A DNA stretch of 32,000 bases from Cylindrospermopsis raciborskii Cr2010. GTDB lineage: Bacteria; Cyanobacteriota; Cyanobacteriia; Cyanobacteriales; Nostocaceae. The position numbers and the translations under genes were made by a program. A model generated the notes under the pieces. It did not search any database and was not told the origin of the DNA. It saw only the letters and a list, made by a program, of their open reading frames with translations. Location: the NCBI RefSeq assembly GCF_003367075.2, contig NZ_CP065936.1, forward strand, positions 3,570,001 through 3,602,000. Direction: 5' to 3'. Of this stretch, positions 4,121 to 25,913 are shown one piece after another; the stretch's first letter is position 1, and every line of letters starts with the position of its first letter.

Positions 4121-4293
4121 GGTTTTTTAGTTATGTGACATCTTACCCATAATTGTTATATCATGTCCATTAAGTCTTTTGCTAAAGGTTAATTAGACTC
4201 ACTCTAGTTTATTGAGATGTTGCCCGATTTTGTCGTTCCCAAACTGTTGCAGTTTTAAAGCTGAGAAAGGACAACTAGAAAACTGGAGAGAAG

Positions 4294-4560
4294 ATGCTAT
4301 TAGCTCACAGTGGAGCTTGTACTAACATTCTCGCTGAACATTATGACGGCTCTAAAAAATCAATTCCCAATCCTGGTTACAGACTAAAAGAGTTTCATAG
4401 AACTGAGGAATGTATAGATCCTCAATTTTCAGGTGCAAGTACACATTGTAGAACTGGTGACTGGGAGGTTACGCGGGTTGAGGAGTATATACCTGACTTA
4501 CCTGTAAGTGAACAACTTCAGTTAAGTTACCCAGTCTTTCAGGCGATCGCTCGTTTTTAA
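4294..4560 (+). CDS. Hypothetical protein (88 aa) with a conserved DWEVTRVEEYIPDLPVSE block
   Basis: ATG is preceded by GGAGAG. A paralogous fragment at 2802..2912 suggests a real, conserved coding sequence. No family recognised. Confidence 0.4.
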   Translation: MLLAHSGACTNILAEHYDGSKKSIPNPGYRLKEFHRTEECIDPQFSGASTHCRTGDWEVTRVEEYIPDLPVSEQLQLSYPVFQAIARF

Positions 4561-7573: not shown

Positions 7574-7700
7574 GGGCGATTGCGAAGCACTCCCTACGGG
7601 AGATCGCATTACACTCCCTACGGGAGATCGTGAAGCAATTTCTATGGGAGATACCCAGGGGATTAACCATAATTGTTGAAATTAACCCCTACCTGGGGAC
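7574..7700. repeat. Dispersed-repeat cluster (GCGAAGCACTCCCTACGGGAGATCGC family plus the ...gcaatttctatgggagat.cccaggggattaaccataattgtt.aaattaacccctacctgg module)
   Basis: The same two-part arrangement recurs at 14017-14115. Confidence 0.75.
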
Positions 7701-10475: not shown

Positions 10476-10937
10476 ATGAAAAAATTTCTCACATTAGCGC
10501 TGATACTGATTTTGTTTCTTGTTTCCTCTTTTAGCCTTGGCACTAGTCCTAGTTATGCTTATAGCGAGTTTGATTTGGACAGACTTTTAAAAACTGATAT
10601 GTGTCTAGGATGTGACCTCTCTAGTGCTAACCTCGAAGATGCTATCCTCATTAATGCTAACCTCCAAGGTGCTAACCTCTCTGGTGCTAACCTCAAAGAT
10701 GCTTTCCTCATTGATGCTAACCTCTCTGATGCTAACCTCCAAGGTGCTAACCTCGAAGGTACTAACCTCAAATATGCTGACCTCGAAGATGCTTTCCTCA
10801 TTGATGCTAACCTCTCTGATGCTAACCTCTCTGATGCTAACCTCTCTGATGCTAACCTCCAAGGTGCTAACCTCCAAGGTGCTAACCTCGAAGGTGCTAA
10901 CCTCGAAGGTGCTAGCCTCAGTGGTGCCATCCGGTAA
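10476..10937 (+). CDS. Secreted pentapeptide-repeat protein
   Basis: N-terminal signal peptide MKKFLTLALILILFLVSSFSLGTSPSYA followed by about 24 A(N/D)L(x)(x) pentapeptides (ANLEDAILINANLQGANLSGANLKDA...). Confidence 0.8.
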   Translation: MKKFLTLALILILFLVSSFSLGTSPSYAYSEFDLDRLLKTDMCLGCDLSSANLEDAILINANLQGANLSGANLKDAFLIDANLSDANLQGANLEGTNLKYADLEDAFLIDANLSDANLSDANLSDANLQGANLQGANLEGANLEGASLSGAIR

Positions 10938-11176
10938 TCACATTCTCTGAGTTACATATTTACGGGATGAAAATATCTGAAAACATTGAAAAATTTTTGG
11001 TAAATCATCCCGAAAAACCACCCCTAGGTCACCCCCTTCAACTCGTCAATGTTGAACCAACTAGGCCAAGTGCGTTCCTCATCCTCCAAAGGATTCCCCT
11101 TGCTATCGGTCAATCCCCACCTAATCATCACCCTGGGTAATGGCGTTTCATTATTAGCAGAAAACTTCTCCAATAA

Positions 11177-11667: not shown

Positions 11668-11747
11668 GGCGATTGCGCAGCACTCCCTGCGGGAGATCGC
11701 ACAGCACTCCCTACGGGAGATCGCGAAGCACTCCTTATGAGTAATCG
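11668..11747. repeat. Dispersed-repeat cluster (three tandem units of the GCGxAGCACTCCCTxCGGGAGATCGC family)
   Basis: ggcgattgcgcagcactccctgcgggagatcgcacagcactccctacgggagatcgcgaagcactccttatgagtaatcg. Confidence 0.8.
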
Positions 11748-11767
11748 TACTATTATATAGAATATAA

Positions 11768-11998
11768 CTACAGTTGTGTATTTGTCAAGTTAGCGTCTAA
11801 TGTGTGAGTATTTTCTATATTAGCACTTCTTGTGTAAGCACCTTTGAGGTCAGCACGTTCAAGGTTAGCATCTTCAAGGTTAGCACCTTCGAGGTCAGCA
11901 CCTTCAAGGTTGGAGGGGCATTTTCTAAATGCATGCCCCTCAAAATCTTCAGAATTTTCCCTGAGGAAAACTAGCGCTCTTCTTTTTAATCTAAACAC
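11768..11998 (-). CDS. Small pentapeptide-repeat protein or fragment (76 aa, GTG start)
   Basis: NLEGADLEGANLEDANLERADLKGA pentapeptide repeats. There is only a GTG start, and the position between repeats suggests it may be a remnant. Confidence 0.35.
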   Translation of the reverse strand: MFRLKRRALVFLRENSEDFEGHAFRKCPSNLEGADLEGANLEDANLERADLKGAYTRSANIENTHTLDANLTNTQL

Positions 11999-12044: not shown

Positions 12045-12614
12045 CATTATTTAATAGAACCATTACAGCCCTCAGATTTGCCTAAAATTATGCACTGGTT
12101 AAATTGGTATACAGCACTGTGCTTTAATCAGATGCTGAATAGAACAGGGCATTTTTGGGAAAAAAGGTATCACAGCACGGGGTTTGCCATGTCAGATAAG
12201 AAAAGGGCATTAAACACGCTGAGATATATACACGGCAATCCTAAAGCAGCAGGAATACAACAGGGAATGTTTTATGATTTTAGTAACTATGGAGTACATG
12301 AGAGATTAGGTAGTGATGGGGTAACAACATGGCATCCAGCCTTTTTAGCGTTAGGGAAAACTTTAGATGAGTGTGCAAACATTTATAAAGGATTTTGTCA
12401 AAAATATCGTCCTCAACCGAAAAAGGTAGAAAAAAACCGCTGGGGGAGTAAACTTTTAGCCGGGATGAAACCAAATCAAAAAAAGAAGGGAACATCACCA
12501 GGACAGCTAAAGCTTTTTTGGGATGAGTTAGACATAACTAGTGAGGAAATAGTAAAGGCAGCAACAATATTTGTCAAGGCAAATTGTTATACACCTAATC
12601 CTAAAAATAAATAG
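12045..12614 (+). pseudogene. REP-associated tyrosine transposase (RAYT, IS200-like Y1 transposase), N-terminally truncated
   Basis: HPHYLIEP (HUH-type motif), LNWYTALCFNQMLNRTGHFWEKRYHS and LRYIHGNPKAAG (catalytic-Tyr helix) fit RAYTs. About 60 N-terminal residues are missing, and the track's TTG start at 12021 lies inside the REP hairpin. Confidence 0.65.
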
Positions 12615-12703
12615 TACCAGGTATCCGAAACCCTGGAACTAGCAAGGTTTCGTTAATTTCTTGTTATTTACAAAAGTTAACAATACTATCAAACCTTTAT
12701 GGG

Positions 12704-13768
12704 TTACACTCTACATGTCTTGACAGGAGGGAACCGCCTGCCTGTCGGGAGTTGACCCGTTGGTGCGGATAATGAAAAGTTTAAATCTTGGTAATAGAGC
12801 CATGAACCTTGTTTTCTCCATCCCACCCTGTCTCCGAAGGATCTCCATACATTCTCATCATATTGTTTTGTTCCTCCCAGGTTTTTGTATATTTCTTGTT
12901 GGACAGATATACCAAATTTACCCTGACTATATTTTAACCACAGATTGTCAATGGTGCGCAATTCCTTACAGGGAAAATTTTCTGCATCTTCTATTCTCAA
13001 CCAACCTTGTCTGTTAGCTACTGCTAACATTACTCTGTCTGTTTCTAAATCTGCTTCTCTAAAGTCTTGAGCTTTCAACAAGGTTTCTAATCTTGTGTAC
13101 CTGCTCGGTGTGGGGGGTGGTGCATTTAAAAAGGTCTGAAGTGGAATTCCATATTCTTCCGGTGTACCGCGTCCATCTCCTAGGCTTTGACTGTGGGTTA
13201 GCCCATGAATACCTACTAATTTACCATTCTCATCTAGGATGGGACCTCCACTCATTCCTTTTAATGCTCCTATTCTATATACCAAGCTATATCCCCCGTC
13301 TCTTGGTTTTTTTAAAATCCGGGAGATTCCATCAAATCTAAAGGTAAAGTCTTGTTTAGAAGGAAACCCACTAATATAAACTACCTGCCCTATGGTTACA
13401 GTATTAGAGTCACCCAATGCCACTACTTGATATTCTTGGTCACTGTTAAATTGAAGGGTGGCTAAATCAAGATTAGGTATTTCTGTTACGTTATTTGATT
13501 GGTATTTTCTCCCATCGTAGGTGATAATTTCAAATGCGCCTTTATACTGAAAAACATGGGAATTGGTTAATACTGTGTAAGTGTTACCATTTTTATTGAT
13601 AATTACACCTGAACCTTGGTCGGGACCGCTAAGGCGAACAGTCACCCTTTCAGCGATCGCGCCGATTTCTTTGGTAGTTAGGGCAATAGTAATAAATGGA
13701 TAGAATATCGTAATAAAGGTGACAAGAATTGCAATAGTGATTAGTTGGGTAAGTTTTTTGCGGTTCAT
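12704..13768 (-). CDS. Membrane-anchored trypsin-like serine protease fused to a C-terminal GUN4-like domain (module copy 1)
   Basis: An N-terminal TM/signal anchor LTQLITIAILVTFITIFYPFITIAL is followed by an S1-type triad context: TNSHV (His), LDLATLQF (Asp), GMSGGPILDENGKLVGIHG (Ser). The C-terminal FPCKELRTIDNLWLKYSQGKFGISVQQEIYKNLGG...VGWRKQGSWLYYQDLNFSLSAPTGQLP matches the GUN4 domain signature. Confidence 0.85.
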   Translation of the reverse strand: MNRKKLTQLITIAILVTFITIFYPFITIALTTKEIGAIAERVTVRLSGPDQGSGVIINKNGNTYTVLTNSHVFQYKGAFEIITYDGRKYQSNNVTEIPNLDLATLQFNSDQEYQVVALGDSNTVTIGQVVYISGFPSKQDFTFRFDGISRILKKPRDGGYSLVYRIGALKGMSGGPILDENGKLVGIHGLTHSQSLGDGRGTPEEYGIPLQTFLNAPPPTPSRYTRLETLLKAQDFREADLETDRVMLAVANRQGWLRIEDAENFPCKELRTIDNLWLKYSQGKFGISVQQEIYKNLGGTKQYDENVWRSFGDRVGWRKQGSWLYYQDLNFSLSAPTGQLPTGRRFPPVKTCRV

Positions 13769-13865
13769 CTCATGGGATGGGTGAGTTTTTTATCAGTATA
13801 GCTATTGTCTCCCAAACCAAGAAACTAGGGTGAATGTATAATAGGGGTATGCCAAAGGAGTGACT

Positions 13866-13894
13866 ATGCCACGTAAACAGCAAGTACCAAAGAA
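13866..13894 (+). pseudogene. Remnant (first about 10 codons) of the Pro/Lys-rich zinc-ribbon gene of the repeated module
   Basis: atgccacgtaaacagcaagtaccaaagaa is identical to 16276-16304 and 22509-22537. Identity ends at 13895. Confidence 0.6.
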
Positions 13895-13895
13895 T

Positions 13896-14010
13896 AGCTT
13901 CCTCCGTACTAATTCTCTCCCCCATGGGTGGTAATCCGGGACAAGGAGTCTAATAGGATTTGAGGGTTGAGTGTGCCATCAGGATTTAACCAGTTGGGCT
14001 CCACCGAAGT
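13896..14010 (-). pseudogene. Remnant of an AAA-ATPase/PD-(D/E)XK paralog (C-terminal pieces, frameshifted)
   Basis: Minus-strand pieces SVEPNWLNPDGTLNPQILLDS and GLPPMGERISTEE parallel IEPRWLNEQGELLPDELLEA and GLPPMGERISTEE of 25989..27533. A further 33-nt piece recurs at 18305-18337. Confidence 0.4.
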
Positions 14011-14016
14011 TAAAGA

Positions 14017-14288
14017 GGCGATTGCGAAGCACTCCCTACGGGAGCTCGCGAAGCAATTTCTATGGGAGATCCCCAGGGGATTAACCATAATTGTTTAAAT
14101 TAACCCCTACCTGGAGACTGTCCGTGGGGGAGACCGGGAATCAATTCCCGGTCTCAAAGCGAAAGTCGGTTGAAAACCGACTGGTTTTGTCGGTTGGGTT
14201 GAGGGATCCCAACACCCCTATGGGATATAAATGCGATTGGGAAGCATTCCCTAGGGGCGATCGCGCAGCACTCCCTTTGGGAGATCGC
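14017..14288. repeat. Dispersed-repeat cluster with nested MITE-like element B copy 2 (14110..14203) and a REP-like hairpin (14191..14217)
   Basis: ggcgattgcgaagcactccctacgggagctcgcgaagcaatttctatgggagatccccaggggattaaccataattgtttaaattaacccctacctggagactg..., ending in ...gcgcagcactccctttgggagatcgc. Confidence 0.8.
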
Positions 14289-14975: not shown

Positions 14976-15119
14976 AATCTGATTTTGCTGTTTCTTTGAT
15001 TATACTTTAGGGAGAATCAGATAAGGTGAGTTAATGAAATGTAACGCAGTTTATCGATAATTCACTTAGTTCACCTTCAGGTCGCACTTTAAGCTCTTAC
15101 TTCATCTGGATTGTAAACT

Positions 15120-15257
15120 GGCGATCGCATCACACTCCCTATGGGCGATTGCGCAGCACTCCCTTTGGGAGATCGCTCTCCTCTAGGGACGTTTCATGTT
15201 CGGTTCCCGTTTGATAAAAGATTGACGGTAAACGTTTTCCGTCAAAGGATGAATCAG
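15120..15257. repeat. Dispersed repeats (15120-15175) followed by MITE-like element A copy 2 (15176-15257, truncated)
   Basis: ggcgatcgcatcacactccctatgggcgattgcgcagcactccctttgggagatcg + ctctcctctagggacgtttcatgttcggttcccgtttgataaaagattgacggtaaacgttttccgtcaaaggatgaatcag. Confidence 0.8.
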
Positions 15258-15487
15258 TAGTGATGGGGTAACAACATGGCATCCAGCCTTTTTAGCGCTA
15301 GGAAAAACTTTAGATGAGTGTGCAAGCATTTATAAAGGATTTTGTCAAAAATATCGTCCTCAACCGAAAAAGGTAGAAAAAAACCGCTGGGGGAGTAAAC
15401 TTTTAGCCGGGATGAAACCAAATCAAAAAAAGAAGGAAACATCACCGGGACAACTAAAGCTCTTTTGGGATGAGTTAGACATAACTA
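15258..15487 (+). pseudogene. RAYT internal fragment (module copy 2)
   Basis: Near-identical to 12308-12543 (…SDGVTTWHPAFLALGKTLDECA.IYKGFCQKYRPQPKKVEKNRWGSKLLAGMKPNQKKK...LFWDELDITN). It lacks both ends. Confidence 0.7.
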
Positions 15488-16178
15488 ATAAGGTTTCTAA
15501 TCTTGTGTACCTGCTCGGGGTGGGGGGTGGTGCATTTAAAAAGGTCTGAAGTGGAATTCCATATTCTTCCGGTGTACCGCGTCCATCTCCTAGGCTTTGA
15601 CTGTGGGTTAGCCCATGAATACCTACTAATTTACCATTCTCATCTAGGATGGGACCTCCACTCATTCCTTTTAATGCTCCTATTCTATATACCAAGCTAT
15701 ATCCCCCGTCTCTTGGTTTTTTTAAAATCCGGGAGATTCCATCAAATCTAAAGGTAAAGTCTTGTTTAGAAGGAAATCCACTAATATAAACTACCTGCCC
15801 TATGGTTACAGTATTAGAGTCACCCAATGCCACTACTTGATATTCTTGGTCACTGTTAAATTGAAGGGTGGCTAAATCAAGATTAGGTATTTCTGTTACG
15901 TTATTTGATTGGTATTTTCTCCCATCGTAGGTGATAATTTCAAATGCGCCTTTATACTGAAAAACATGGGAATTGGTTAATACTGTGTAAGTGTTACCAT
16001 TTTTATTGATAATTACACCTGAACCTTGGTCGGGACCGCTAAGGCGAACAGTCACCCTTTCAGCGATCGCGCCGATTTCTTTGGTAGTTAGGGCAATAGT
16101 AATAAATGGATAGAATATGGTAATAAAGGTGACAAGAATTGCAATAGTGATTAGTTGGGTAAGTTTTTTGCGGTTCAT
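15488..16178 (-). pseudogene. Trypsin-like protease of the module, GUN4 domain deleted (module copy 2)
   Basis: Identical in protein to residues 1-230 of copies 1 and 3 (through ...RYTRLETLL). The reading frame then continues into antisense RAYT sequence (VMSNSSQKSFSCPGDVSFFF, track ORF 15423..16178). Confidence 0.75.
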
Positions 16179-16275
16179 CTCATGGGATGGGTGAGTTTTT
16201 TATCAGTATAGCTATTGTCTCCCAAACCAAGAAACTAGGGTTAATGTATAATAGGGGTATGCCAAAGGAGTGACT

Positions 16276-16935
16276 ATGCCACGTAAACAGCAAGTACCAA
16301 AGAAAGAAGAGCCAAAGCAGGAAACAAAACTGCAAATAATATCTGTGGTTAGGAAAACTGCTGCTCCCCCTCCAGTGGAATCTAATCCTGATGAGATTAT
16401 TCCACCTGCTGAGGAAAATAAAAAGGCTACCCCCCAAAAAGCTGCAAGAAAAAAATCTCAAAAAGCATCACCTGTGGTTCTAGCTCCACCACCTCCTCGG
16501 GATGTTACACCCCCAGTTGAAATACCCCCAGTGGTTATGACTCCCCCAAAAGACAGGGAGGTAGCATTACCTATTGAAATGGTTCCATCAACTCAACCAG
16601 ATGTTACACAACCGGTCGAAACTACTCTGCTAAAAGACCAGGAGGTAGGAGAACCAAATGTAGAATCATTGCCTGATGAAAAGACACAATACAAAAAGAA
16701 AGAGAAATTCTATATCTTTAAACGCCCCTACAAATTTACTCTAAAGGGCGATATAAATTTAATTGAGTGGGAATGCTCTTGTGGATATGAAGACGAAGTG
16801 TCTGTGCTTGTAGGAATGGAAAATTTACTTGTATTTTGTTCCCAGTGCGGGAAACCCAATAAGTTCAGAGGAACTCTATTAAGTCAAAAAGGCGCAACAG
16901 TTGGGGATGAAACTATCCCTGATGTCTCCCCATAA
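16276..16935 (+). CDS. Lys/Pro-rich, apparently disordered protein with C-terminal CxC-x18-CxxC zinc ribbon (module copy 2)
   Basis: GGAG at 16267-16270 lies 5 nt upstream of ATG 16276. The 219-aa product has internal imperfect repeats (DVTPPVE.../DVTQPVE...; PPKDREVALP/LLKDQEVGEP). The C-terminus reads IEWECSCGYEDEVSVLVGMENLLVFCSQCGKPNKF. Only one amino acid (R/K) differs from copy 3. No family recognised. Confidence 0.7.
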   Translation: MPRKQQVPKKEEPKQETKLQIISVVRKTAAPPPVESNPDEIIPPAEENKKATPQKAARKKSQKASPVVLAPPPPRDVTPPVEIPPVVMTPPKDREVALPIEMVPSTQPDVTQPVETTLLKDQEVGEPNVESLPDEKTQYKKKEKFYIFKRPYKFTLKGDINLIEWECSCGYEDEVSVLVGMENLLVFCSQCGKPNKFRGTLLSQKGATVGDETIPDVSP

Positions 16936-16965
16936 AAAAAGCCCCTCACCAGGTGAGGAGCTTTT
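16934..16965. terminator. Bidirectional intrinsic terminator (A-run, GC hairpin, T-run)
   Basis: aaaaaaaGCCCCTCACcagGTGAGGAGCtttt, located between convergent genes. Identical to 23167-23198. Confidence 0.7.
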
Positions 16966-16984
16966 CATTTACCAGTATTTGTTA

Positions 16985-17005
16985 TTAACCGTTGATTGCG
17001 GGAGC
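16985..17005 (-). pseudogene. 21-nt remnant of a psbA 3' end (stop codon plus 6 codons)
   Basis: ttaaccgttgattgcgggagc equals 23218-23238, the 3' end of psbA copy 2. Identity ends at 17006, where the NTase/wHTH cassette begins. Confidence 0.7.
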
Positions 17006-17010
17006 ATTAA

Positions 17011-17685
17011 TTATTGTGCTAACCTTTGAATTAGATTCAAAATTAATTGGTCACGACCAGCATTTTTTGATGCAAATGAAAGTTGACTAGGAGCTATTTC
17101 TAAAAGGTTTTCAAATTCAGTTTTAATCCATGTTTTTATAAACTTCTTGACTTTTATATCTCCCTGTTCTATTTCTTGTTCTAAATTAGGACAGCCATCC
17201 AGGAGTAAAACAATATCCTCTAAATCATGACTAGTATAGAAATTGCGATTTCCTCGACTATTAAATGCCTCAATTTTTGAAGCTAAAAGATAAGTTACCG
17301 GGAAAATATTTATTTTTTGACTACTTGGAAAAGTATAAATAATTGATTTTTTTATTCCTGGCTTGTACCAAGAATTGCTAAAACCAAGGATAGAAGTATC
17401 GTCTGGCATTATATCTAATATTAATTCCTGATACCGCCAACGACATATAACTTTACCTTTATCCTGTTCAAGTCCAATTTGACGTAGCTCTTCTTCAAAA
17501 AGATAGTATTTATTACGAGGAGTAATATTGATAACGCAATCTACATCATTCGTAGGACGGGCATCAATAGCAGAAATTTCGTCAAGATATAGTGATATTG
17601 TTGCCCCACCTATAAAAACTATTTTTTTATTTAATGCGGCAAGTAATTTTGCCGCCTTTTCAAGCATTTGTACTTGTTCATTCAT
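17011..17685 (-). CDS. Nucleotidyltransferase-fold protein, AbiEii/AbiGii-toxin-like
   Basis: The NTase signature is IVFIGGATISLYL...PTNDVDCVI (GG...hDhD). The C-terminal helix ASKIEAFNSRGNRNFYTSHDLEDIVLLLD resembles the AbiEii/DUF1814-type KLxAxxxRxxxRDxxDL region. A 4-nt overlap (ATGA) joins it to the upstream gene. Confidence 0.55.
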   Translation of the reverse strand: MNEQVQMLEKAAKLLAALNKKIVFIGGATISLYLDEISAIDARPTNDVDCVINITPRNKYYLFEEELRQIGLEQDKGKVICRWRYQELILDIMPDDTSILGFSNSWYKPGIKKSIIYTFPSSQKINIFPVTYLLASKIEAFNSRGNRNFYTSHDLEDIVLLLDGCPNLEQEIEQGDIKVKKFIKTWIKTEFENLLEIAPSQLSFASKNAGRDQLILNLIQRLAQ

Positions 17686-18254
17686 CTGATTGTCAGTTTC
17701 TTTTCTAGCTCTTGACTAGCGAGATTTTGTTCTCGCGCACGACCAACCCGAATTGCATCCACCAAACTCAACAACTCATAGAGTTCTGGGTCATTTTTTA
17801 CTGCAGCAGGAACAGATTTATATAATGGGGTAATACTTTGTCCTCTCACAGTTCCCTGTGGATCACTCCATACGTAGATATCGGTAGAATTGACATTCAG
17901 TAAATTTTTTAATGGTTCTGCTGAATGCGCAGTAGCAATTCCCCTCGTTAAAGGACCAGGTTTTTCAGGAAATACGTATTTCAGTCCGTGAATGAGGAAT
18001 TCAAGCAAAGAATGGTTTTTCACTTTTCTAGTAGACCAATCATACAACCCACTGGACTGACATCTTTTGAGACCAGCATAAACTTCCGAAGGACTAATGT
18101 GTAATGCAGTGCCAAGCTGGTTATAAGTCCATTCTGAGTTTTTTAAGTTGTGTACTTTCAGCAAGACAACGATATCTTGAGGTTTTAGCATGACGAGATT
18201 TTCGATGAATCTACATTTTATTCTATATTCGCAAATCGCAAATTTATTTGCCAT
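17682..18254 (-). CDS. Winged-helix DNA-binding protein, AbiEi-antitoxin-like partner of the NTase (alternative start ATG 18191)
   Basis: LKPQDIVVLLKVHNLKNSEWTYNQLGTALHISPSEVYAGLKRCQSSGLY is a wHTH pattern. A C-terminal domain of about 110 aa is of unknown function. The gene is translationally coupled to the NTase gene. Confidence 0.5.
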   Translation of the reverse strand: MANKFAICEYRIKCRFIENLVMLKPQDIVVLLKVHNLKNSEWTYNQLGTALHISPSEVYAGLKRCQSSGLYDWSTRKVKNHSLLEFLIHGLKYVFPEKPGPLTRGIATAHSAEPLKNLLNVNSTDIYVWSDPQGTVRGQSITPLYKSVPAAVKNDPELYELLSLVDAIRVGRAREQNLASQELEKKLTIR

Positions 18255-18360
18255 AATTGCCAGTTATGAAAAAAGTCTCCCACTACGTGAGGAGCTAATT
18301 GGAATATTAACCAGTTGGGACCCACCGAAGTTAAAGAGGCGATCGCGAAGCACTCCCCAT

Positions 18361-18392
18361 AAAAAAAGCCCCACACTAGGTGTGGAGCTTTT
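18361..18392. terminator. Variant copy of the bidirectional terminator downstream of psbA copy 1
   Basis: aaaaaaaGCCCCACACtagGTGTGGAGCtttt. Relative to 16941-16961, the stem carries a compensatory T:A to A:T change. Confidence 0.7.
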
Positions 18393-18411
18393 CATTTACC
18401 AGGACTGATTA

Positions 18412-19494
18412 TTAACCGTTGATTGCGGGGGCGGTTAATGCTACAGGTGCTACTTCACCAGCAGCTAGGTCTAAGGGGAAGTTGTGGGCGTTACGCTCGT
18501 GCATTACTTCCATACCTAGGTTAGCGCGGTTGATTACGTCAGCCCATGTACCGATTACGCGTCCTTGAGAATCAATGATGGATTGGTTGAAGTTGAATCC
18601 ATTCAGGTTGAATGCCATGGTGCTTACACCCAGTGCTGTAAACCAGATTCCTACTACTGGCCATGCTGCCAAGAAGAAGTGTAGTGAACGGCTGTTGTTG
18701 AATGAAGCATATTGGAATATCAAGCGTCCGAAGTAACCGTGTGCTGCTACGATGTTGTAGGTTTCTTCCTCTTGTCCGAACTTGTAACCATAGTTCTGAG
18801 ACTCGGTTTCGGTTGTTTCTCTTACTAAGGAAGATGTTACTAAGGAACCGTGCATAGCGCTGAACAAGCTACCACCGAATACACCTGCTACTCCTAACAT
18901 GTGGAAGGGGTGCATGAGGATGTTATGCTCTGCTTGGAACACAATCATGAAGTTGAAGGTTCCAGAGATACCTAAGGGCATACCATCAGAGAATGAACCT
19001 TGTCCGATGGGGTAGATTAAGAATACTGCGGTAGCTGCTGCCAAAGGAGCGGAGAATGCTACGCAAATCCAAGGGCGCATGCCTAAACGGAAGGATAGTT
19101 CCCATTCACGACCTAGGTAGCAGGCTACACCAATCAAGAAGTGGAAAATTACTAGTTGGTAAGGACCACCGTTGTATAACCATTCATCTAAGGATGCAGC
19201 TTCCCAAATTGGGTAGAAGTGCAAGCCAATAGCGTTGGAGGAAGGAACTACAGCACCGGAGATGATGTTGTTACCGTACATTAGGGAACCAGCTACGGGT
19301 TCGCGAATACCGTCGATGTCCACGGGGGGAGCAGCAATAAAAGCAATGATGAAGCAAGTAGTAGCTGCGAGAAGGGTGGGGATCATTAACACGCCAAACC
19401 AGCCAATATAAAGGCGGTTGTTGGTGCTGGTGATAAATTCACAGAAGCGATCCCATACGTTGGCGCTTTGGCGCTGTTGAATGGCAGTGGTCAT
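18412..19494 (-). CDS. psbA: Photosystem II reaction-centre protein D1 (E130, D1:2-type), copy 1
   Basis: The 360-aa product is unmistakably D1 (…[26 protein letters not shown]…[30 protein letters not shown]…[23 protein letters not shown] + C-terminal extension). By direct count, residue 130 is Glu. Confidence 0.97.
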
Positions 19495-19522
19495 GGTTGG
19501 CGTTGCATATTTGCGGGATGAA

Positions 19523-19969
19523 TCAACTAAACGCGGGTATTACTTCATACTTTAAATAGTGAAGTAATAATTTAATTGAATACCTAAGCATATCTACAGA
19601 TTTTGAATAGCATAGCGTTTTTCTATGTAGTCGCGCTAAGTAGTGACGTAAACGTGTATTTTCACCCTCTACCCTAGTCATATATGTTTTGCTCACAATA
19701 TGATCCTCTGGCTGAATAAAACTCGGATAAACCCTCCACCCATCAGTAACATAAAAAAAGCATTGCCAGAGTTTAACGATGTCCCACAAAGGTTGAAATG
19801 CTTGTGAGCTGTGGTCTCCCACAACCCAAGCCAGGATATTTTTACGGAAGTGATTTACTGCTGTCCACAACCATATTTTGTTTTTTTTTGATCCCACAAA
19901 GGTCTCCAACTCATCAAGCTCACCTACCAAGGGTGTTTCCTGGTGGAGCATCTGGAAGTATGGAACCAA
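19523..19969 (-). CDS. IS1 transposase C-terminal ORF (InsB-like DDE domain), probably expressed by frameshift fusion with InsA
   Basis: [22 protein letters not shown]...[13 protein letters not shown]...[36 protein letters not shown]. It overlaps the InsA frame by 50 nt. Confidence 0.8.
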
Positions 19970-20210
19970 TTTGTTTTAGCCAGTAAATAATAGTTGTATG
20001 ATGAACGCCTTTATCGCGTTCAATTGCTCTAAATCCCATACCGTTAACATAAGAGCGCAGGCAACTTTGTTTAACTTCTTCTGAATAGCCTTTAGGTGGA
20101 CTATAGACATCGATAAATTGACGACCACAATCAACACAAATGTGATTTTGTTTACCTCGACGTTTGCCATTCTTTCTGATTTTGGAAGACCCGCAGTTTG
20201 GACAATGCAC
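19920..20210 (-). CDS. IS1 transposase N-terminal ORF (InsA-like, zinc finger plus HTH)
   Basis: MHCPNCGSSKIRKNGKRRGKQNHICVDCGRQF...GMGFRAIERDKGVHHTTIIYWLKQ. Confidence 0.8.
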   Translation of the reverse strand: MHCPNCGSSKIRKNGKRRGKQNHICVDCGRQFIDVYSPPKGYSEEVKQSCLRSYVNGMGFRAIERDKGVHHTTIIYWLKQIGSILPDAPPGNTLGR

Positions 20211-20249
20211 AGTAGATTACCTCAATTCATACCTCTATTATGCAACGCC

Positions 20250-20470
20250 GAATCAGTCGGTGCAAAAGTTAAGTTTTTACCCCCCTATTCTCCAGACTTA
20301 TCTCCGATAGAATTGTGTTGGTCAAAATTAAAGCAATTTCTCCGTAGTCGGGAGGCACGAACATTAGAAGCCCTAAATGAGGCCATGACAAGTGCAGTAA
20401 ATTATATTACAGCAGAGGATGCGCTTAATTGGTTCAATCATTGTGGTTTATTTACATGAAAACCGCTGTA
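20250..20470 (+). mobile_element. 3' fragment of an IS630-family element, truncated by the IS1
   Basis: It encodes ESVGAKVKFLPPYSPDLSPIELCWSKLKQFLRSREARTLEALNEAMTSAVNYITAEDALNWFNHCGLFT, identical to the C-terminus of 24873..25376. It ends with the IS630 terminal sequence acatgaaaaccgctgta. Confidence 0.85.
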
Positions 20471-20503
20471 ATATAGCTTGAGTTAAGGGGTGAGGAATGA
20501 AAA

Positions 20504-20539
20504 GGGCGATTGCGCAGCACTCCCTGCGGGATCTCGCAC
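20504..20539. repeat. Single unit of the dispersed-repeat family
   Basis: gggcgattgcgcagcactccctgcgggatctcgcac. Confidence 0.7.
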
Positions 20540-20661
20540 TGTATAACATCCTTTGATAATTTCTTAGGGCTAGGTCTTTTTTCTAGATGCGATCGCTTAC
20601 CCATTTCCTCTCAAAGGAAAAATGGTGAACCTTTCCTTGAAGACAGTTAATGGCAATGACG

Positions 20662-20957
20662 GACGATTCCGAAGCACTTCCTACAGGCGGGGCGATCGCA
20701 ATATATGATATACACCGACAGTAGTTCGGTGAAATTTCCCTTGAGAATCTCCTGGGGTTACTCTTTCTTCTGCAGGCGATCGCATTGCACTCCCTACAGG
20801 CGATCGCATCACACTCCCAATGTGGGATTGCGCAGCACTCCCTACAGGAGATCGCTCTCCCCTAGGCACGTTTCATGTTCGGTTCCCGTTTGATAAAACA
20901 TTGACGGTAAACGTTTTCCGTCAAAGGATGAATCAGTTATTTCAAGGGGGTAGGGAT
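20662..20957. repeat. Dispersed-repeat cluster (20662-20854) followed by MITE-like element A copy 3 (20855-20957)
   Basis: ...ggcgatcgcattgcactccctacaggcgatcgcatcacactcccaatgtgggattgcgcagcactccctacaggagatcg + ctctcccctaggcacgtttcatgttcggttcccgtttgataaaacattgacggtaaacgttttccgtcaaaggatgaatcagttatttcaagggggtagggat. Confidence 0.8.
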
Positions 20958-20974
20958 CACCCCCTGTGGGAGAT

Positions 20975-21248
20975 ACTGTGTTTTAATCAGATGCTGAAAG
21001 GATTTTGTCAAAAATATCGTCCTCAACCGAAAAAGGTGGAAAAAAACCGGTGGGGGAGTAAACTTTTGGCGGGGATGAAACCAAATCAAAAAAAGAAGGG
21101 AACATCACCAGGACAGCTAAAGCTTTTTTGGGATGAGTTAGACATAACTAATAAGGAAATAGTAAAGGCAGCAACAATATTTGTCAAGGCAAATTGTTAT
21201 ACACCTAATCCTAAAAATAAATTATATGAACTAGCAAGGTTTCGTTAA
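20975..21248 (+). pseudogene. RAYT remnant with internal deletion (module copy 3)
   Basis: ...(A)LCFNQML joins directly to KGFCQKYRPQPKKVEKNRWGSKLLAGMKPNQKKKGTSPGQLKLFWDELDITNKEIVKAATIFVKANCYTPNPKNK. Relative to copy 1, 12132-12389 is deleted. The N-terminal part of track ORF 20820..21248 is translated repeat sequence. Confidence 0.7.
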
Positions 21249-21295
21249 TTTCTTGTTATTTACAAAAGTTAACAATACTATCAAACCTTTATGGG

Positions 21296-22411
21296 TTACA
21301 CTCTACATGTCTTGACAGGAGGGAAGTACCTCCTCCTCAGTTGCAGTGCCACCGACCGCAGCGCCCAAATCATCCGCAAGTTTGGGAGTTGACCCGTTGG
21401 TGCGGATAATGAAAAGTTTAAATCTTTGTAATCGAGCCATGAACCTTGTTTTCTCCATCCCACCCTGTCTCCCAAGGATCTCCATACATTCACATCAAAT
21501 TGTTTTGTTCCTCCCAGGTTTTTGTATATTTCTTGTTGGACAGATATACCAAATTTACCCTGACTATATTTTAACCACAGATTGTCAATGGTGCGTAATT
21601 CTTGACAGGGAAAATTTTCTGCATCTTCTACTCTCAACCAAATCTCGCTTTGTCTGTTAGCTACTGCTAACATTACTCTGTCTGTTTCTAAATCTGCTTC
21701 TCTAAAGTCTTGAGCTTTCAACAAGGTTTCTAATCTTGTGTACCTGCTCGGGGTGGGGGGTGGTGCATTTAAAAAGGTCTGAAGTGGAATTCCATATTCT
21801 TCCGGTGTACCGCGTCCATCTCCTAGGCTTTGACTGTGGGTTAGCCCATGAATACCTACTAATTTACCATTCTCATCTAGGATGGGACCTCCACTCATTC
21901 CTTTTAATGCTCCTATTCTATATACCAAGCTATATCCCCCGTCTCTTGGTTTTTTTAAAATCCGGGAGATTCCATCAAATCTAAAGGTAAAGTCTTGTTT
22001 AGAAGGAAACCCACTAATATAAACTACCTGCCCTATGGTTACAGTATTAGAGTCACCCAATGCCACTACTTGATATTCTTGGTCACTGTTAAATTGAAGG
22101 GTGGCTAAATCAAGATTAGGTATTTCTGTTACGTTATTTGATTGGTATTTTCTCCCATCGTAGGTGATAATTTCAAATGCGCCTTTATACTGAAAAACAT
22201 GGGAATTGGTTAATACTGTGTAAGTGTTACCATTTTTATTGATAATTACACCTGAACCTTGGTCGGGACCGCTAAGGCGAACAGTCACCCTTTCAGCGAT
22301 CGCGCCGATTTCTTTGGTAGTTAGGGCAATAGTAATAAATGGATAGAATATGGTAATAAAGGTGACAAGAATTGCAATAGTGATTAGTTGGGTAAGTTTT
22401 TTGCGGTTCAT
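21296..22411 (-). CDS. Membrane-anchored trypsin-like serine protease fused to a GUN4-like domain (module copy 3, 371 aa)
   Basis: Residues 1-256 are identical to copy 1. The GUN4 domain is diverged (SEIWLRVEDAENFPCQELRT..., QFDVNVWRSLGDRV, LDYKDLNF) and the C-terminal tail is longer (…GQLPNLRMIWALRSVALQLRRRYFPPVKTCRV). Confidence 0.85.
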   Translation of the reverse strand: MNRKKLTQLITIAILVTFITIFYPFITIALTTKEIGAIAERVTVRLSGPDQGSGVIINKNGNTYTVLTNSHVFQYKGAFEIITYDGRKYQSNNVTEIPNLDLATLQFNSDQEYQVVALGDSNTVTIGQVVYISGFPSKQDFTFRFDGISRILKKPRDGGYSLVYRIGALKGMSGGPILDENGKLVGIHGLTHSQSLGDGRGTPEEYGIPLQTFLNAPPPTPSRYTRLETLLKAQDFREADLETDRVMLAVANRQSEIWLRVEDAENFPCQELRTIDNLWLKYSQGKFGISVQQEIYKNLGGTKQFDVNVWRSLGDRVGWRKQGSWLDYKDLNFSLSAPTGQLPNLRMIWALRSVALQLRRRYFPPVKTCRV

Positions 22412-22508
22412 CTCATGGGATGGGTGAGTTTTTTATCAGTATAGCTATTGTCTCCCAAACCAAGAAACTAGGGCTAATGTATAATAGGGGTATGCCAAAG
22501 GAGTGACT

Positions 22509-23168
22509 ATGCCACGTAAACAGCAAGTACCAAAGAAAGAAGAGCCAAAGCAGGAAACAAAACTGCAAATAATATCTGTGGTTAAGAAAACTGCTGCTCC
22601 CCCTCCAGTGGAATCTAATCCTGATGAGATTATTCCACCTGCTGAGGAAAATAAAAAGGCTACCCCCCAAAAAGCTGCAAGAAAAAAATCTCAAAAAGCA
22701 TCACCTGTGGTTCTAGCTCCACCACCTCCTCGGGATGTTACACCCCCAGTTGAAATACCCCCAGTGGTTATGACTCCCCCAAAAGACAGGGAGGTAGCAT
22801 TACCTATTGAAATGGTTCCATCAACTCAACCAGATGTTACACAACCGGTCGAAACTACTCTGCTAAAAGACCAGGAGGTAGGAGAACCAAATGTAGAATC
22901 ATTGCCTGATGAAAAGACACAATACAAAAAGAAAGAGAAATTCTATATCTTTAAACGCCCCTACAAATTTACTCTAAAGGGCGATATAAATTTGATTGAG
23001 TGGGAATGCTCTTGTGGATATGAAGACGAAGTGTCTGTGCTTGTAGGAATGGAAAATTTACTTGTATTTTGTTCCCAGTGCGGGAAACCCAATAAGTTCA
23101 GAGGAACTCTATTAAGTCAAAAAGGCGCAACAGTTGGGGATGAAACTATCCCTGATGTCTCCCCATAA
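22509..23168 (+). CDS. Lys/Pro-rich protein with C-terminal zinc ribbon (module copy 3)
   Basis: Same as 16276..16935 with one substitution (K for R). It lies 97 bp from the divergent protease start. Confidence 0.7.
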   Translation: MPRKQQVPKKEEPKQETKLQIISVVKKTAAPPPVESNPDEIIPPAEENKKATPQKAARKKSQKASPVVLAPPPPRDVTPPVEIPPVVMTPPKDREVALPIEMVPSTQPDVTQPVETTLLKDQEVGEPNVESLPDEKTQYKKKEKFYIFKRPYKFTLKGDINLIEWECSCGYEDEVSVLVGMENLLVFCSQCGKPNKFRGTLLSQKGATVGDETIPDVSP

Positions 23169-23198
23169 AAAAAGCCCCTCACCAGGTGAGGAGCTTTT
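23167..23198. terminator. Bidirectional intrinsic terminator shared by the zinc-ribbon gene and psbA
   Basis: aaaaaaaGCCCCTCACcagGTGAGGAGCtttt, located between stop codons 23166-23168 (+) and 23218-23220 (-). Confidence 0.7.
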
Positions 23199-23217
23199 CA
23201 TTTACCAGTATTGATTA

Positions 23218-24300
23218 TTAACCGTTGATTGCGGGAGCGGTTAATGCTACAGGTGCTACTTCACCAGCAGCTAGGTCTAAGGGGAAGTTGTGGGCGTTAC
23301 GCTCGTGCATTACTTCCATACCTAGGTTAGCGCGGTTGATTACGTCAGCCCATGTACCGATTACGCGTCCTTGAGAATCAATGATGGATTGGTTGAAGTT
23401 GAATCCATTCAGGTTGAATGCCATGGTGCTTACACCCAGTGCTGTAAACCAGATTCCTACTACTGGCCATGCTGCCAAGAAGAAGTGTAGTGAACGGCTG
23501 TTGTTGAATGAAGCATATTGGAATATCAAGCGTCCGAAGTAACCGTGTGCTGCTACGATGTTGTAGGTTTCTTCCTCTTGTCCGAACTTGTAACCATAGT
23601 TCTGAGACTCGGTTTCGGTTGTTTCTCTTACTAAGGAAGATGTTACTAAGGAACCGTGCATAGCGCTGAACAAGCTACCACCGAATACACCTGCTACTCC
23701 TAACATGTGGAAGGGGTGCATGAGAATGTTATGCTCTGCTTGGAACACAATCATGAAGTTGAAGGTTCCAGAGATACCTAAGGGCATACCATCAGAGAAT
23801 GAACCTTGTCCGATGGGGTAGATTAAGAATACTGCGGTAGCAGCTGCCAAAGGAGCGGAGAATGCTACGCAAATCCAAGGGCGCATGCCTAACCGGAAGG
23901 ATAGTTCCCATTCACGACCTAGGTAGCAGGCTACACCAATCAAGAAGTGGAAAATTACTAGTTGGTAAGGACCACCGTTGTATAACCATTCATCTAAGGA
24001 TGCAGCTTCCCAAATGGGGTAGAAGTGCAAGCCAATGGCATTGGAGGAGGGAACCACAGCACCGGAGATGATGTTGTTACCGTACATTAGGGAACCAGCT
24101 ACGGGTTCGCGAATACCGTCGATGTCCACGGGGGGAGCAGCAATAAAAGCAATGATGAAGCAAGTGGTAGCTGCGAGAAGGGTGGGGATCATTAACACCC
24201 CGAACCAGCCAATATAGAGGCGGTTGTTGGTGCTGGTGATAAATTCACAGAAGCGATCCCATACGTTGGCGCTTTGGCGCTGTTGAATGGCAGTGGTCAT
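23218..24300 (-). CDS. psbA: Photosystem II reaction-centre protein D1 (E130, D1:2-type), copy 2
   Basis: The protein is identical to 18412..19494. The DNA differs at about a dozen positions, all synonymous. Confidence 0.97.
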
Positions 24301-24368
24301 GGTTTTATAATTGCGGTTTTACGAGAGATTTATGTATGTTCTGGTAGGTGTTTCTACCTTATGAACTT

Positions 24369-24397
24369 ATATTAAGACAAATATTTAGTTTTGTAAA
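24369..24397 (-). promoter_or_regulatory. Candidate sigma70-type psbA promoter (-35 TTTACA, 17-nt spacer, -10 TAATAT)
   Basis: The minus strand reads cctcTTTACAaaactaaatatttgtctTAATATaagttca, about 70 nt upstream of the psbA ATG. This consensus-like spacing is typical of strong psbA promoters. Confidence 0.5.
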
Positions 24398-24667
24398 GAG
24401 GTTTTTACAAAATTTTTAATAATTTTGCCAATTAGGGATTTTCCTATATGTGGTAGGGGTTTCCGATTATTAAGTTACTAGTTTTGACGCTCAGTTTCAC
24501 TTGTAATGATTATTTTATGTTAACTCCTATATAATTTAATTTGATTAAGTTAGTTTTTATTTATATCCTGTTATAGGAATTGTGATAGGAAGTGCAATCT
24601 GGAGAGTGCTACTGCTTCGCAATCTTATGGACTTTTGATATACTGAGGTAAAATACTTACAAGTAAG

Positions 24668-24862
24668 ATGAATAAAATCCTCTGCGTAAAACCAGACTGT
24701 TTGCACCAGAATCCAAACGACTGTAAATTCTGCCAAAAATGTGGCAACAAATTAATTTTGCGAGAGCGGTTCATCCCCCGGGAAATTTTGGGGGAGGGAG
24801 GATTTGGACGTACCTTTTTAGCAACAGATACGGGTAAACCATCTCAACCTACCTGTGTGATT
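24668..24862 (+). pseudogene. N-terminal fragment of a Ser/Thr protein kinase with Cys4 zinc-ribbon prefix, interrupted by IS630
   Basis: CVKPDCLHQNPNDCKFCQKCGNKL is followed by the kinase glycine loop ILGEGGFGRTFLA. The IS630 terminus lies at 24862. Joining across the IS gives only about 22 more codons before a stop, so most of the kinase is missing. Confidence 0.6.
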
Positions 24863-25913
24863 ACAGCGGTTTTCATGTAAATAAACCACAATGATTGAAC
24901 CAATTAAGCGCATCCTCTGCTGTAATATAATTTACTGCACTTGTCATGGCCTCATTTAGGGCTTCTAATGTTCGTGCCTCCCGACTACGGAGAAATTGCT
25001 TTAATTTTGACCAACACAATTCTATCGGAGATAAGTCTGGAGAATAGGGGGGTAAAAACTTAACTTTTGCACCGACTGATTCAATTGACAATCTCACGCG
25101 CTCGGCATAATGAACCTTTAAATTATCCATAACAACAATAGCCCCTTTCCATAATTGAGGTACTAAAACCTGATTTACATAAGTGAGAAATACTTCTGTA
25201 TTTGTGCTTCCCTCTACAGTCATTGCTGCCAGAATTCCATCCATATTTAAAGCCCCAATCAGAGAAATATTTTTGCCCTTGTTTCCTGGTACGCTACCAA
25301 TTGCTCTTTGTCCATCTTGGCTTCTGGCAAACAACCTTGACATCCCTAAATTTATCCCCGATTCATCTAAAAACACTAAATTTCTAATATCAACTGTATC
25401 TACCCAACGACGATAATCATGCCTTAATTCTTGAACACGTGGAGTCTCCTGTTCACTGGCATTTAGACTTTTTTTTTATGACGTAGACCCAACTTTTCTA
25501 AGGCTCGATGCATGGTTGTGATACTAAAACTAGTGCCCGTCGTTTCTCTCAGGCGATCGCATAATTCTGAAAGCAGTAAATCATTTTTCTCATCCAGCCA
25601 AGACTTGATCATGTTTAAATATTCGCCTGCAATTATAGGCTTTTCATATCCTCCACATTGCTTTGGCTCAACTTGCCCAGTTTCACGATAACGACGTACT
25701 AAATTTCTCACAAATGATAAGCTGACCTTGAATCTTTCTGCCAACTGGCGTTGAGATCCCTCTCGAGCAACCCATGCTACAATCACGCGATTACGCAAAT
25801 CTATTGAATAAGGTTTTGGTATATAATTTGACAGCATTTCTACCCTATTTTAGTTTATTACCCTTATTATAGCTTATCTTATTTTGGAGTTTAACTACAT
25901 GAAAATTGCTGTA
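24862..25913 (-). mobile_element. IS630-family (Tc1/mariner-like) insertion sequence, about 1.05 kb, apparently complete
   Basis: Terminal inverted repeats are tacagcggttttcatgt (24862-24878) and acatgaaaattgctgta (25897-25913), with TA dinucleotides at both junctions. Confidence 0.8.
24873..25837 (-). CDS. IS630 transposase (HTH ORF 25463..25837 plus DDE ORF 24873..25376; joined by a -1 shift on an A9 run)
   Basis: ORF1 ends ...RHKKKV*. Slipping -1 on cataaaaaaaaagtc gives ...KKKSLNASEQETPRVQELRHDYRRWVDTVDIRNLVFLDESGINLG..., which continues into the DDE domain (…VMDNLKVHY…PPYSPDLSPIELCWSKLK). Confidence 0.75.

Follow-up and report, generated by a model that had tools for sequence, protein, structure and literature searches.

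Nucleotidyltransferases (NTases) of the DUF1814 family share four motifs: motifs I and II take the form hG[G/S]x(n)DhD with an arginine in motif II, motif III reads KLxAaxxR in COG4849, and motif IV follows the pattern +DxxD (PMC3985639). AbiEii, MenT3, and MenT4 belong to COG2253 and are encoded together with COG5340 antitoxins. MenT1 is a COG4849 protein, and the usual neighbour of COG4849 is the winged helix-turn-helix (wHTH) family COG4861 (bioRxiv 10.64898/2026.01.19.700257, PMC3985639). In the arrangement described by Dy et al. 2014, a predicted COG4861 transcriptional regulator precedes the DUF1814 COG4849 NTase (PMC3985639). MenT toxins extend tRNA 3′ ends (PMC11375011), and they are controlled by antitoxin-induced auto-phosphorylation (PMC11375011; bioRxiv 10.64898/2026.01.19.700257). 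The subject here is a two-gene NTase cassette that lies between two copies of a psbA 3′ end in Cylindrospermopsis raciborskii Cr2010. The analysed stretch, called the window, comprises 32,000 nucleotides (nt) of contig NZ_CP065936.1 (positions 3,570,001 to 3,602,000 of the forward strand), and all coordinates refer to it. With a probability of roughly 0.6, the cassette is an autoregulated COG4861–COG4849-type NTase toxin–antitoxin (TA) module that was brought to its site by psbA-anchored illegitimate recombination and not by transposition.

The cassette (17011–18243) is self-contained and holds two open reading frames (ORFs) on the minus strand. An earlier note on this DNA had placed them at 17011–17685 and 17682–18254, joined by an ATGA overlap, and both are present with the 4-nt overlap at 17682–17685. 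The putative toxin gene (17011–17685, minus strand) encodes a 224-residue, MenT1/COG4849-like protein. This protein is a nucleotidyltransferase of the AbiEii/DUF1814 superfamily with all four catalytic motifs intact. It matches the Pfam family AbiEii/DUF1814 (PF08843) over residues 16–170 with 27.8 bits (E 3e-6; gathering cut-off 22.5 bits), and many of its homologs already carry a precomputed PF08843 assignment. Motifs I and II (F-I-G26-G27, R43, and D47-V-D49) are invariant among 33 aligned sequences; the G-G and DxD elements are 19 residues apart, compared to 15 in AbiEii. In the same alignment, K137, A140, F141, and R144 of motif III (K137-I-E-A-F-N-S-R144) do not vary, nor do D154 and D157 of motif IV (D154-L-E-D157), which is preceded by H, K, T, or S. 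D47, D49, K137, and D154 are candidate catalytic residues, and the invariant T29 beside G26-G27 is a candidate phospho-acceptor.

The AlphaFold2 (AF2) model of the NTase has a predicted local distance difference test score (pLDDT) of 92.6. The best Foldseek matches in the PDB are MenT1 structures (8an5/8an4, E 3e-6 to 9e-5; top probability 1.00, template modelling score (TM) 0.52/0.62), followed by 5uvd, ANT(2'')-Ia and LnuA (E 2e-4 to 2e-3), and MenT3/TglT (E 2e-3). The NTase fold that had been proposed for this ORF is borne out by the PF08843 match and by MenT1 as the closest fold. Sequence and profile searches of the PDB returned marginal matches only (5uvd, E 0.064; 2d1h, E 0.34), and NCBIfam gave no match for the NTase or its partner.

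The partner gene (17682–18191, minus strand) encodes a putative antitoxin and autorepressor. The earlier note had recognized the gene and its wHTH, which both stand, and had let it start at 18254, which yields an ORF of 190 residues. The start shared by all aligned homologs (30/30) is the MLKPQD methionine at 18191, M22 of the longer ORF, and the gene product is therefore taken to have 169 residues. Its AF2 model (pLDDT 93.5) contains an N-terminal wHTH domain; the Foldseek matches are wHTH regulators only and cover the ∼70 N-terminal residues. The window protein matches no Pfam family, HTH_24 is found in 24 of the 30 homologs, and none of the 30 matches an AbiEi Pfam family. The AbiEi structure 6Y8Q is absent among the 50 Foldseek matches listed for the partner. 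The C-terminal ∼95 residues are strongly conserved across the 30 homologs, with the blocks PTAHSAEPL, YVW, GQxIxPLY, and DAxRVGRxRE.

PADLOC assigns both proteins to one system. The partner matches PDC-M21A (E 4.1e-52, profile positions 49–202 of 205) and the NTase matches PDC-M21B (E 6.7e-54, positions 7–229 of 234), in adjacent genes that overlap by 4 nt. The cassette is thus the defence candidate PDC-M21, for which a literature search found no mention; the PDC-x systems of PADLOC are unpublished, unvalidated candidates (PMC11811056). PADLOC's AbiEii models match the NTase weakly (E 0.003–0.004 over about 35–50 residues) and the partner lies outside AbiEi/COG5340, so the pair fits a MenT1/COG4849-like sister branch and not AbiE proper. 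Judged by the form of motif III, the nearest structure, and the wHTH partner, this branch appears to be the COG4861 (wHTH)–COG4849 (NTase) one. The likeness to AbiEi–AbiEii seen earlier accordingly holds for the NTase at the level of the PF08843 superfamily and fails for the partner, and the accompanying suggestion of a distinct NTase-based module is apt. The module is a fairly ordinary member of the already known DUF1814 TA superfamily.

The two genes are strictly paired. Among 83 metagenomic and viral loci with a relative of the NTase (31–98% identity), the partner gene lies upstream of the NTase gene in 81, which settles the question of co-occurrence in other genomes; the sequence upstream is too short for the pairing test in the remaining two. 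The pair is immediately adjacent in 79 of these 81, and the genes are 160 nt apart in L024 and 1,717 nt apart in L025. A position downstream of psbA, raised as something to look for in other genomes, did not generalize: psbA is near the pair only in L022, a Cylindrospermopsis-like locus.

The cassette begins with its promoter, predicted operator, and 5′ untranslated region (UTR) at 18192–18243 (minus strand). ATTTGCGATTTGCGAATA repeats at 18243–18226 abut the −10 box TAGAAT (18225–18220). In loci at 50–83% protein identity, the partner gene is likewise preceded by a TAGAAT −10 box, which tandem ATTYGC half-sites or the palindrome ATTCGCGAAT directly adjoin. Such conserved repeats or palindromes over the −10 box suggest an autoregulated operon. 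The ancestral −35 element (TTGCTA) is missing in the window, and a search of the minus strand detected no promoter-like site ahead of the operon.

The relatives occupy varied contexts. One is accompanied by a type I restriction-modification system and an integrase, and others by PIF1 helicase, HNH, and integrase genes; the 144 neighbouring proteins of homologs include 5 integrases and some defence proteins amid housekeeping genes. Two loci (L002, 4634–5917; L025, 3533–4849) hold a gene for a 427–439-residue RRXRR + HNH protein of IscB-like architecture between the wHTH and NTase genes, which parts the normally overlapping pair by about 1.6–1.7 kb. In a distant clade (∼40% NTase identity; L061, L067, L071, L085, L091, L094, and L099, about 3600–4417), a gene for a ∼220-residue calcineurin-like phosphoesterase (Metallophos) directly precedes the wHTH gene. 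This phosphoesterase may be a third component, and it is an intriguing neighbour since AbiEii and MenT toxins are under reversible phosphorylation control.

The cassette is bracketed by a direct repeat of 80 nt (16926–17005 and 18353–18432; 72/80 identical). A duplicated block of terminator and psbA end had been described in the earlier note; it is confirmed, with a length a little above the ∼75 bp given there. On the minus strand, each block consists of the last 21 nt of psbA (…APAING and stop), a 22-nt spacer, a 14-bp hairpin, and U7. The proximal psbA 3′ module (18353–18432, minus strand) carries the last 21 nt of the intact psbA, its 3′UTR, and the terminator hairpin at 18363–18393. The distal module (16926–17005, minus strand) carries a 21-nt psbA stub (16985–17005), the 3′UTR, and a terminator hairpin at 16936–16966. 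The stub is the reverse complement of GCTCCCGCAATCAACGGTTAA and codes for APAING and stop; the cassette-free psbA ends in the identical sequence.

On the psbA strand the 14-bp stems have folding energies of −19.8 (distal) and −19.6 kcal/mol (proximal), with z about −5 to −5.6. With a stem followed by U7, both hairpins are intrinsic (rho-independent) terminators and are also called by a terminator scan. The A-run and U-run on both sides make the terminator bidirectional, and the distal one also terminates the convergent ORF221. A degenerate terminator pattern finds three sites in the window versus 0.00 expected by chance, the third of which (23165–23195) lies behind the second psbA (copy C). 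A weak third terminator-like copy, which had been noticed before as degraded, is found at 18266–18296 (25/31 identical, −8.1 kcal/mol, z −1.9). An Rfam scan of window positions 15000–25000 detected no known RNA family. Three substitutions distinguish the two strong hairpins: T→A at 18373 with the compensatory A→T at 18383, and one in the loop at 18377. The compensatory pair itself is confirmed, and the conclusion once drawn from it, that selection maintains both hairpins, is weakened by unpaired combinations in related strains. Across strains this stem pair appears as U-A, U.G, A-U, U.U (L008), and A.G (L021), and the last two look like recombinants of variant and resident haplotypes that arose by gene conversion.

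The repeat block is the generic 3′ module of the psbA multigene family, since the same 3′UTR and terminator follow psbA at all ten loci examined from the Cylindrospermopsis/Raphidiopsis lineage (six of them in genome AP018317), which part only after TTTTTTTATGG. A genome of this lineage thus has at least 6 copies of the module. The distal block agrees with the cassette-free block at 23159–23238 in 78 of 80 positions. The proximal block differs from it at 6 positions and has a variant haplotype (CACAC/GTGTG, spacer GTCC). In a comparison of 29 modules, this haplotype was complete only in proximal modules of filled sites; L008, L010, and L021 have partial mosaics. The mosaic modules among strains suggest that short-tract gene conversion is ongoing.

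A paralogous copy of the locus without the cassette lies within the window. The gene upstream of the cassette is psbA copy B (18412–19494, minus strand; D1, 360 residues), the product of which is identical to that of copy C. At the empty site (22503–24300), a copy of ORF221 (22503–23168, plus strand) converges on psbA copy C (23218–24300, minus strand) over a single 3′ module (23159–23238). Positions 15487–17011 match 21720–23245 at 99.4%, and 18353–19498 match 23159–24304 at 98.4%. By these flank matches, the psbA C unit represents the empty site and unit B the same locus plus 1,427 nt, that is, the cassette and one extra block. The second psbA with its empty site, the generic nature of the module, and the patchwork spacer described below were missing from the earlier anatomy.

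The limits of the cassette are set by its relatives in other genera (Anabaena sp. UHCC 0187, a Calothrix metagenome-assembled genome, Nostoc sp. MG11, and metagenome contigs). Nucleotide homology starts at 18243 in every locus including the promoter, and it stops at 17006–17010 wherever the locus reaches the NTase stop codon (L001–L005). The shared sequence begins with the operator and −10 box and ends 1–5 nt beyond the NTase stop; the flanks of these relatives are unrelated and lack psbA. Between the cassette and the proximal module, a patchwork spacer of 109 nt (18244–18352, minus strand) is composed of the weak hairpin at 18266–18296, a 37-nt fragment of AAA_35-family coding sequence (18307–18343), and one 24-nt HIP1 unit (18338–18357). 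Intact AAA_35 genes of L014 and L017 share a 22-mer with this AAA_35 fragment, as does a second fragment at 14001–14022. The HIP1 unit beside the proximal terminator is present in one copy here and in two in other strains, and psbA lies directly upstream of AAA_35 genes in L019 and L020. Two other identities of spacer-type sequence were considered and rejected: 18307–18343 is a fragment of AAA_35 coding sequence and not a dispersed repeat resembling a miniature inverted-repeat transposable element, and CAACTGGTTAA is part of the coding sequence of an AAA_35 gene and not a third psbA stub. At the other end, the cassette meets the stub at 17006–17010 (minus strand), where the cassette end …CAATAATTA and psbA …GCATTAACCGCTCCC may have the microhomology ATTA(A) in common.

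The insert has only its two ORFs and is devoid of a transposase, an integrase, terminal inverted repeats at its ends, and a short target duplication. It does not qualify as a transposon, insertion sequence (IS), integron cassette, or integrative element. The flanking direct repeat is no signature of transposition either, because it is the resident psbA 3′ module. The earlier proposal of an exchange between psbA loci in place of transposition is upheld as regards the missing transposition signatures and the exchange of psbA 3′ ends; the exchange that delivered the cassette is plausible, with homology on one side.

The filled site is found in at least six independent assemblies, among them complete genomes and a plasmid, and an assembly artefact is rejected on these grounds. 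In at least five assemblies, and in one case on a 146-kb plasmid, the gene order is psbA–pair–ORF219/221–trypsin/GUN4. Many assemblies encode an identical NTase; one of them is CP060822/CP060823, Raphidiopsis curvispora GIHE-G1. A scan of genome contigs returned 3 loci only, with the source species not among them. The cassette shows 0–1 difference in 1,233 nt within the lineage, and the flanks differ by ∼0.3%. The psbA coding sequence differs at 12–22 of 1,083 nt in four of five other assemblies and at 1 nt in the closely related L006, which points to conversion between paralogs. In every assembly examined, and in both copies of the one strain that has two, neither the ORFs nor the −10 box nor the operator is disrupted.

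In the proposed function, the NTase would add nucleotides to the 3′-CCA ends of tRNAs, which would block aminoacylation and stop translation. The partner would repress the operon through its wHTH at the ATTYGC operator, and its C-terminal domain would neutralize the toxin by binding and/or by induced auto-phosphorylation, with T29 as the candidate acceptor. If host expression collapsed, for instance during phage infection, the partner would be lost and the toxin freed, leading to abortive infection. The mechanism is modelled on MenT1, MenT3, and AbiEii, and by the same analogy a role in phage defence is plausible.

The arrival of the cassette can be reconstructed as a single event of homology-facilitated illegitimate recombination, a process described for natural transformation in Acinetobacter. 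The donor segment would have begun with a psbA 3′ part and the variant module and continued through junk that stems from a locus of psbA–AAA_35 type into the cassette. The donor was probably another psbA locus of the same lineage, since the junk is built of lineage-specific sequences. The segment would have replaced the end of the psbA adjoining ORF221 by two crossovers: one homologous, inside psbA, the other an illegitimate join just past the NTase stop, 21–28 nt before the recipient psbA stop and near the imperfect ATTA(A). This would leave a complete psbA, the variant module, the junk, and the cassette, followed by the recipient's 21-nt stub and its own module. A segmental duplication would later have copied the unit, including onto a plasmid, and short-tract gene conversion would still shuffle the modules.

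Several points weigh against this combined account. The toxicity of the NTase, its action on tRNA, its control by phosphorylation, and a part in phage defence are all proposed by analogy, and the structural likeness to MenT1 is moderate (TM 0.5–0.6, ∼15% identity). The C-terminal domain of the partner has no detectable PDB relative, the neighbourhood of the homologs is only partly defence-related, and AbiE of S. agalactiae gave no protection against 32 coliphages (bioRxiv 10.64898/2026.01.19.700257). With its −35 element lost, the cassette may be poorly expressed in this lineage. Its conservation within the lineage had to be rejected as evidence of selection, as the flanks are nearly as invariant. 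The arrival route is a plausible reconstruction from the scar, with only one side homologous; the junction lies 3–5 nt past the NTase stop, and the microhomology is incomplete, psbA having CC at a point where the window has T. No donor psbA locus with the variant module (CACAC/GTGTG, spacer GTCC) was present among L012–L021, and the empty copy could instead be a product of secondary deletion or loss.

On the side of function, the lost −35 element invites the explanation that the cassette is a silent passenger here, cut off from its −35, placed between two terminators, and carried along by duplication of the psbA unit. The replacement of TTGCTA and the absence of a promoter-like minus-strand site upstream of the operon agree with this, and given the low strain divergence the intact ORFs do not testify to selection. 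Nonetheless, the ORFs, −10 box, and operator have survived in every assembly examined, even where one strain holds two copies, and many cyanobacterial promoters are active without a consensus −35, which renders a silent cassette unlikely. It is highly improbable that the NTase instead modifies small molecules (antibiotics or metabolites), as an ANT(2'')/Lnu-type nucleotidyltransferase with a dedicated wHTH regulator and no toxic activity. ANT(2'')-Ia and LnuA are among the Foldseek matches (E 2e-4 to 2e-3), but MenT1 is matched best, the protein passes the Pfam AbiEii model, and the DUF1814-specific motifs III and IV are present; the overlapping regulator–enzyme operon, the strict pairing, and the mobile contexts are moreover typical of TA modules.

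On the side of arrival, the cassette might once have lain between two full psbA genes of the same orientation, of which the second lost its body by a deletion from the NTase stop to 21–28 nt before its own stop, so that the stub was left behind. Tandem psbA–ORF221–trypsin/GUN4 units of one orientation exist in the window, the ATTA(A) at the junction could have served such a deletion, and other psbA stubs are found in the lineage, for example in L009 (16513–16678). This history is possible but doubtful: the order psbA–cassette–full psbA occurs in no genome examined, and deletion by itself leaves the haplotype of the proximal module and the AAA_35 junk unexplained. A Campbell-type or site-specific integration, in which a circular cassette with one psbA 3′ module entered by a single crossover and duplicated the 80 nt like attL/attR, would account for direct repeats that exactly flank the insert and for the single copy at the empty site. 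However, no integrase or recombinase lies in or beside the cassette, its relatives in other genera lack the psbA module, and the crossover would have to be confined to the first 2 nt of the repeat, as the proximal copy is all variant and the distal copy all resident; such an integration is very unlikely. A bolder extension of the favoured psbA-anchored recombination, and decidedly a long shot, would make the psbA 3′ module, which is nearly the same in different strains and replicons, a portable anchor that captures TA or defence cassettes and spreads them among paralogs, plasmids, and strains. With its own −35 lost, the cassette would then be expressed partly by psbA read-through, and the collapse of psbA transcription in cyanophage infection would deprive the cell of antitoxin and trigger the NTase. 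The premise is that few host genes are transcribed as strongly or targeted by phages as much as psbA.

The surroundings of the cassette are rich in repeats. The convergent ORF221 (16270–16935, plus strand), which shares the distal terminator and is duplicated at 22503–23168, has no Pfam match, and its exact protein is not on record in databases. Its product is proline-rich and ends in a zinc-ribbon-like CxC…CxxC pattern, and its stop codon lies within the A-run of the shared bidirectional terminator. Three tandem units of the same orientation (trypsin/GUN4 protease, ORF221, psbA; 97–99% identical) occupy 12310–13894, 15257–19498, and 20997–24304. Only the third is intact; the first is incomplete, and the second, which harbours the cassette, has a truncated protease gene. 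An IS1-family element (19499–20249) with 25-nt terminal inverted repeats (19499–19523, 20225–20249) and an InsB that matches PF03400 begins 4 nt upstream of the psbA B start codon. Homology to copy C ends at 19498, so that psbA B lacks its promoter and 5′UTR in this strain, as it does in L006. Transposase fragments of the IS630 family (DDE_3) contain a perfect 223-nt inverted repeat (20250–20472/24860–25082), a substrate for inversion with one arm directly next to the IS1 element that precedes psbA B and the other upstream of psbA C. In the related strain L009, the psbA 3′ stub at 16513–16678 (∼135 nt of coding sequence and 13 nt of spacer) is fused to pentapeptide-like repeat sequence beside an AAA_35 gene, which marks psbA 3′ ends as recurrent breakpoints in the lineage. 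An array of 15-nt tandem repeats (10565–10980), consistent with pentapeptide-repeat coding sequence of related loci, has an inverted partial copy at 11834–11911. The 24-nt HIP1-containing repeat (GGCGATYGCGAAGCACTCCCTACG) forms dispersed tandem arrays at at least 16 window sites, for example 7575–7646, 11668–11739, 14017–14088, 15120–15191, and 20775–20870.

The cassette offers a clean cyanobacterial example of the wHTH-partnered AbiEii/MenT branch, with a predicted operator, candidate catalytic residues, and a candidate phospho-acceptor. It is a test case for whether a third, unrelated type of antitoxin also induces auto-phosphorylation of its toxin, as shown recently for MenT1, MenT3, and AbiEii. 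The host belongs to a bloom-forming, toxin-producing genus with poorly known phage defence. A filled site and its empty paralog within one window illustrate how the 3′ end of a multicopy photosynthesis gene would mediate cassette capture and gene conversion without mobile-element enzymes. The psbA scar is a lineage-specific recombination product in an IS-rich and repeat-rich genome, and current understanding is not overturned by it.

Compared to the Acinetobacter process, the proposed arrival shares one end anchored by homology (psbA), another end at or near microhomology, and the lack of mobile-element machinery. It differs in being read from the scar alone, in a donor that would be a psbA locus of the same lineage and not foreign DNA, and in the duplication of 80 nt. 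Among TA systems, MenAT1 of M. tuberculosis (Rv0078B–Rv0078A; PDB 8AN4/8AN5/8RR5) provides the best structural match to the window NTase. MenT1 and the window protein are both short for NTases, belong to DUF1814, and have the four motifs in common, and nucleotide addition to tRNA 3′ ends under the control of an upstream-encoded antitoxin would be expected here by analogy. The two NTases are only about 15% identical and no PDB match is found at the sequence level. MenA1 is small and has no wHTH, whereas the window partner is a 169-residue wHTH protein with a large conserved C-terminal domain. AbiE of L. lactis and S. agalactiae (AbiEi–AbiEii, COG5340–COG2253) is likewise bicistronic, with the wHTH gene first and overlapping ORFs. 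Repeats lie in both promoters (for autoregulation in AbiE, the ATTYGC predicted operator in the window), and both toxins belong to PF08843. In contrast to AbiE, the window partner matches no AbiEi family and shows no 6Y8Q-like fold among the matches listed, and the window NTase has a COG4849-type motif III and is about 70–90 residues shorter than a typical AbiEii. The COG4861–COG4849 pair (PMC3985639) has the same order of regulator and DUF1814 NTase and the same KLxAaxxR-type motif as the window pair, and the two models of PDC-M21 are matched nearly end to end by both window proteins.

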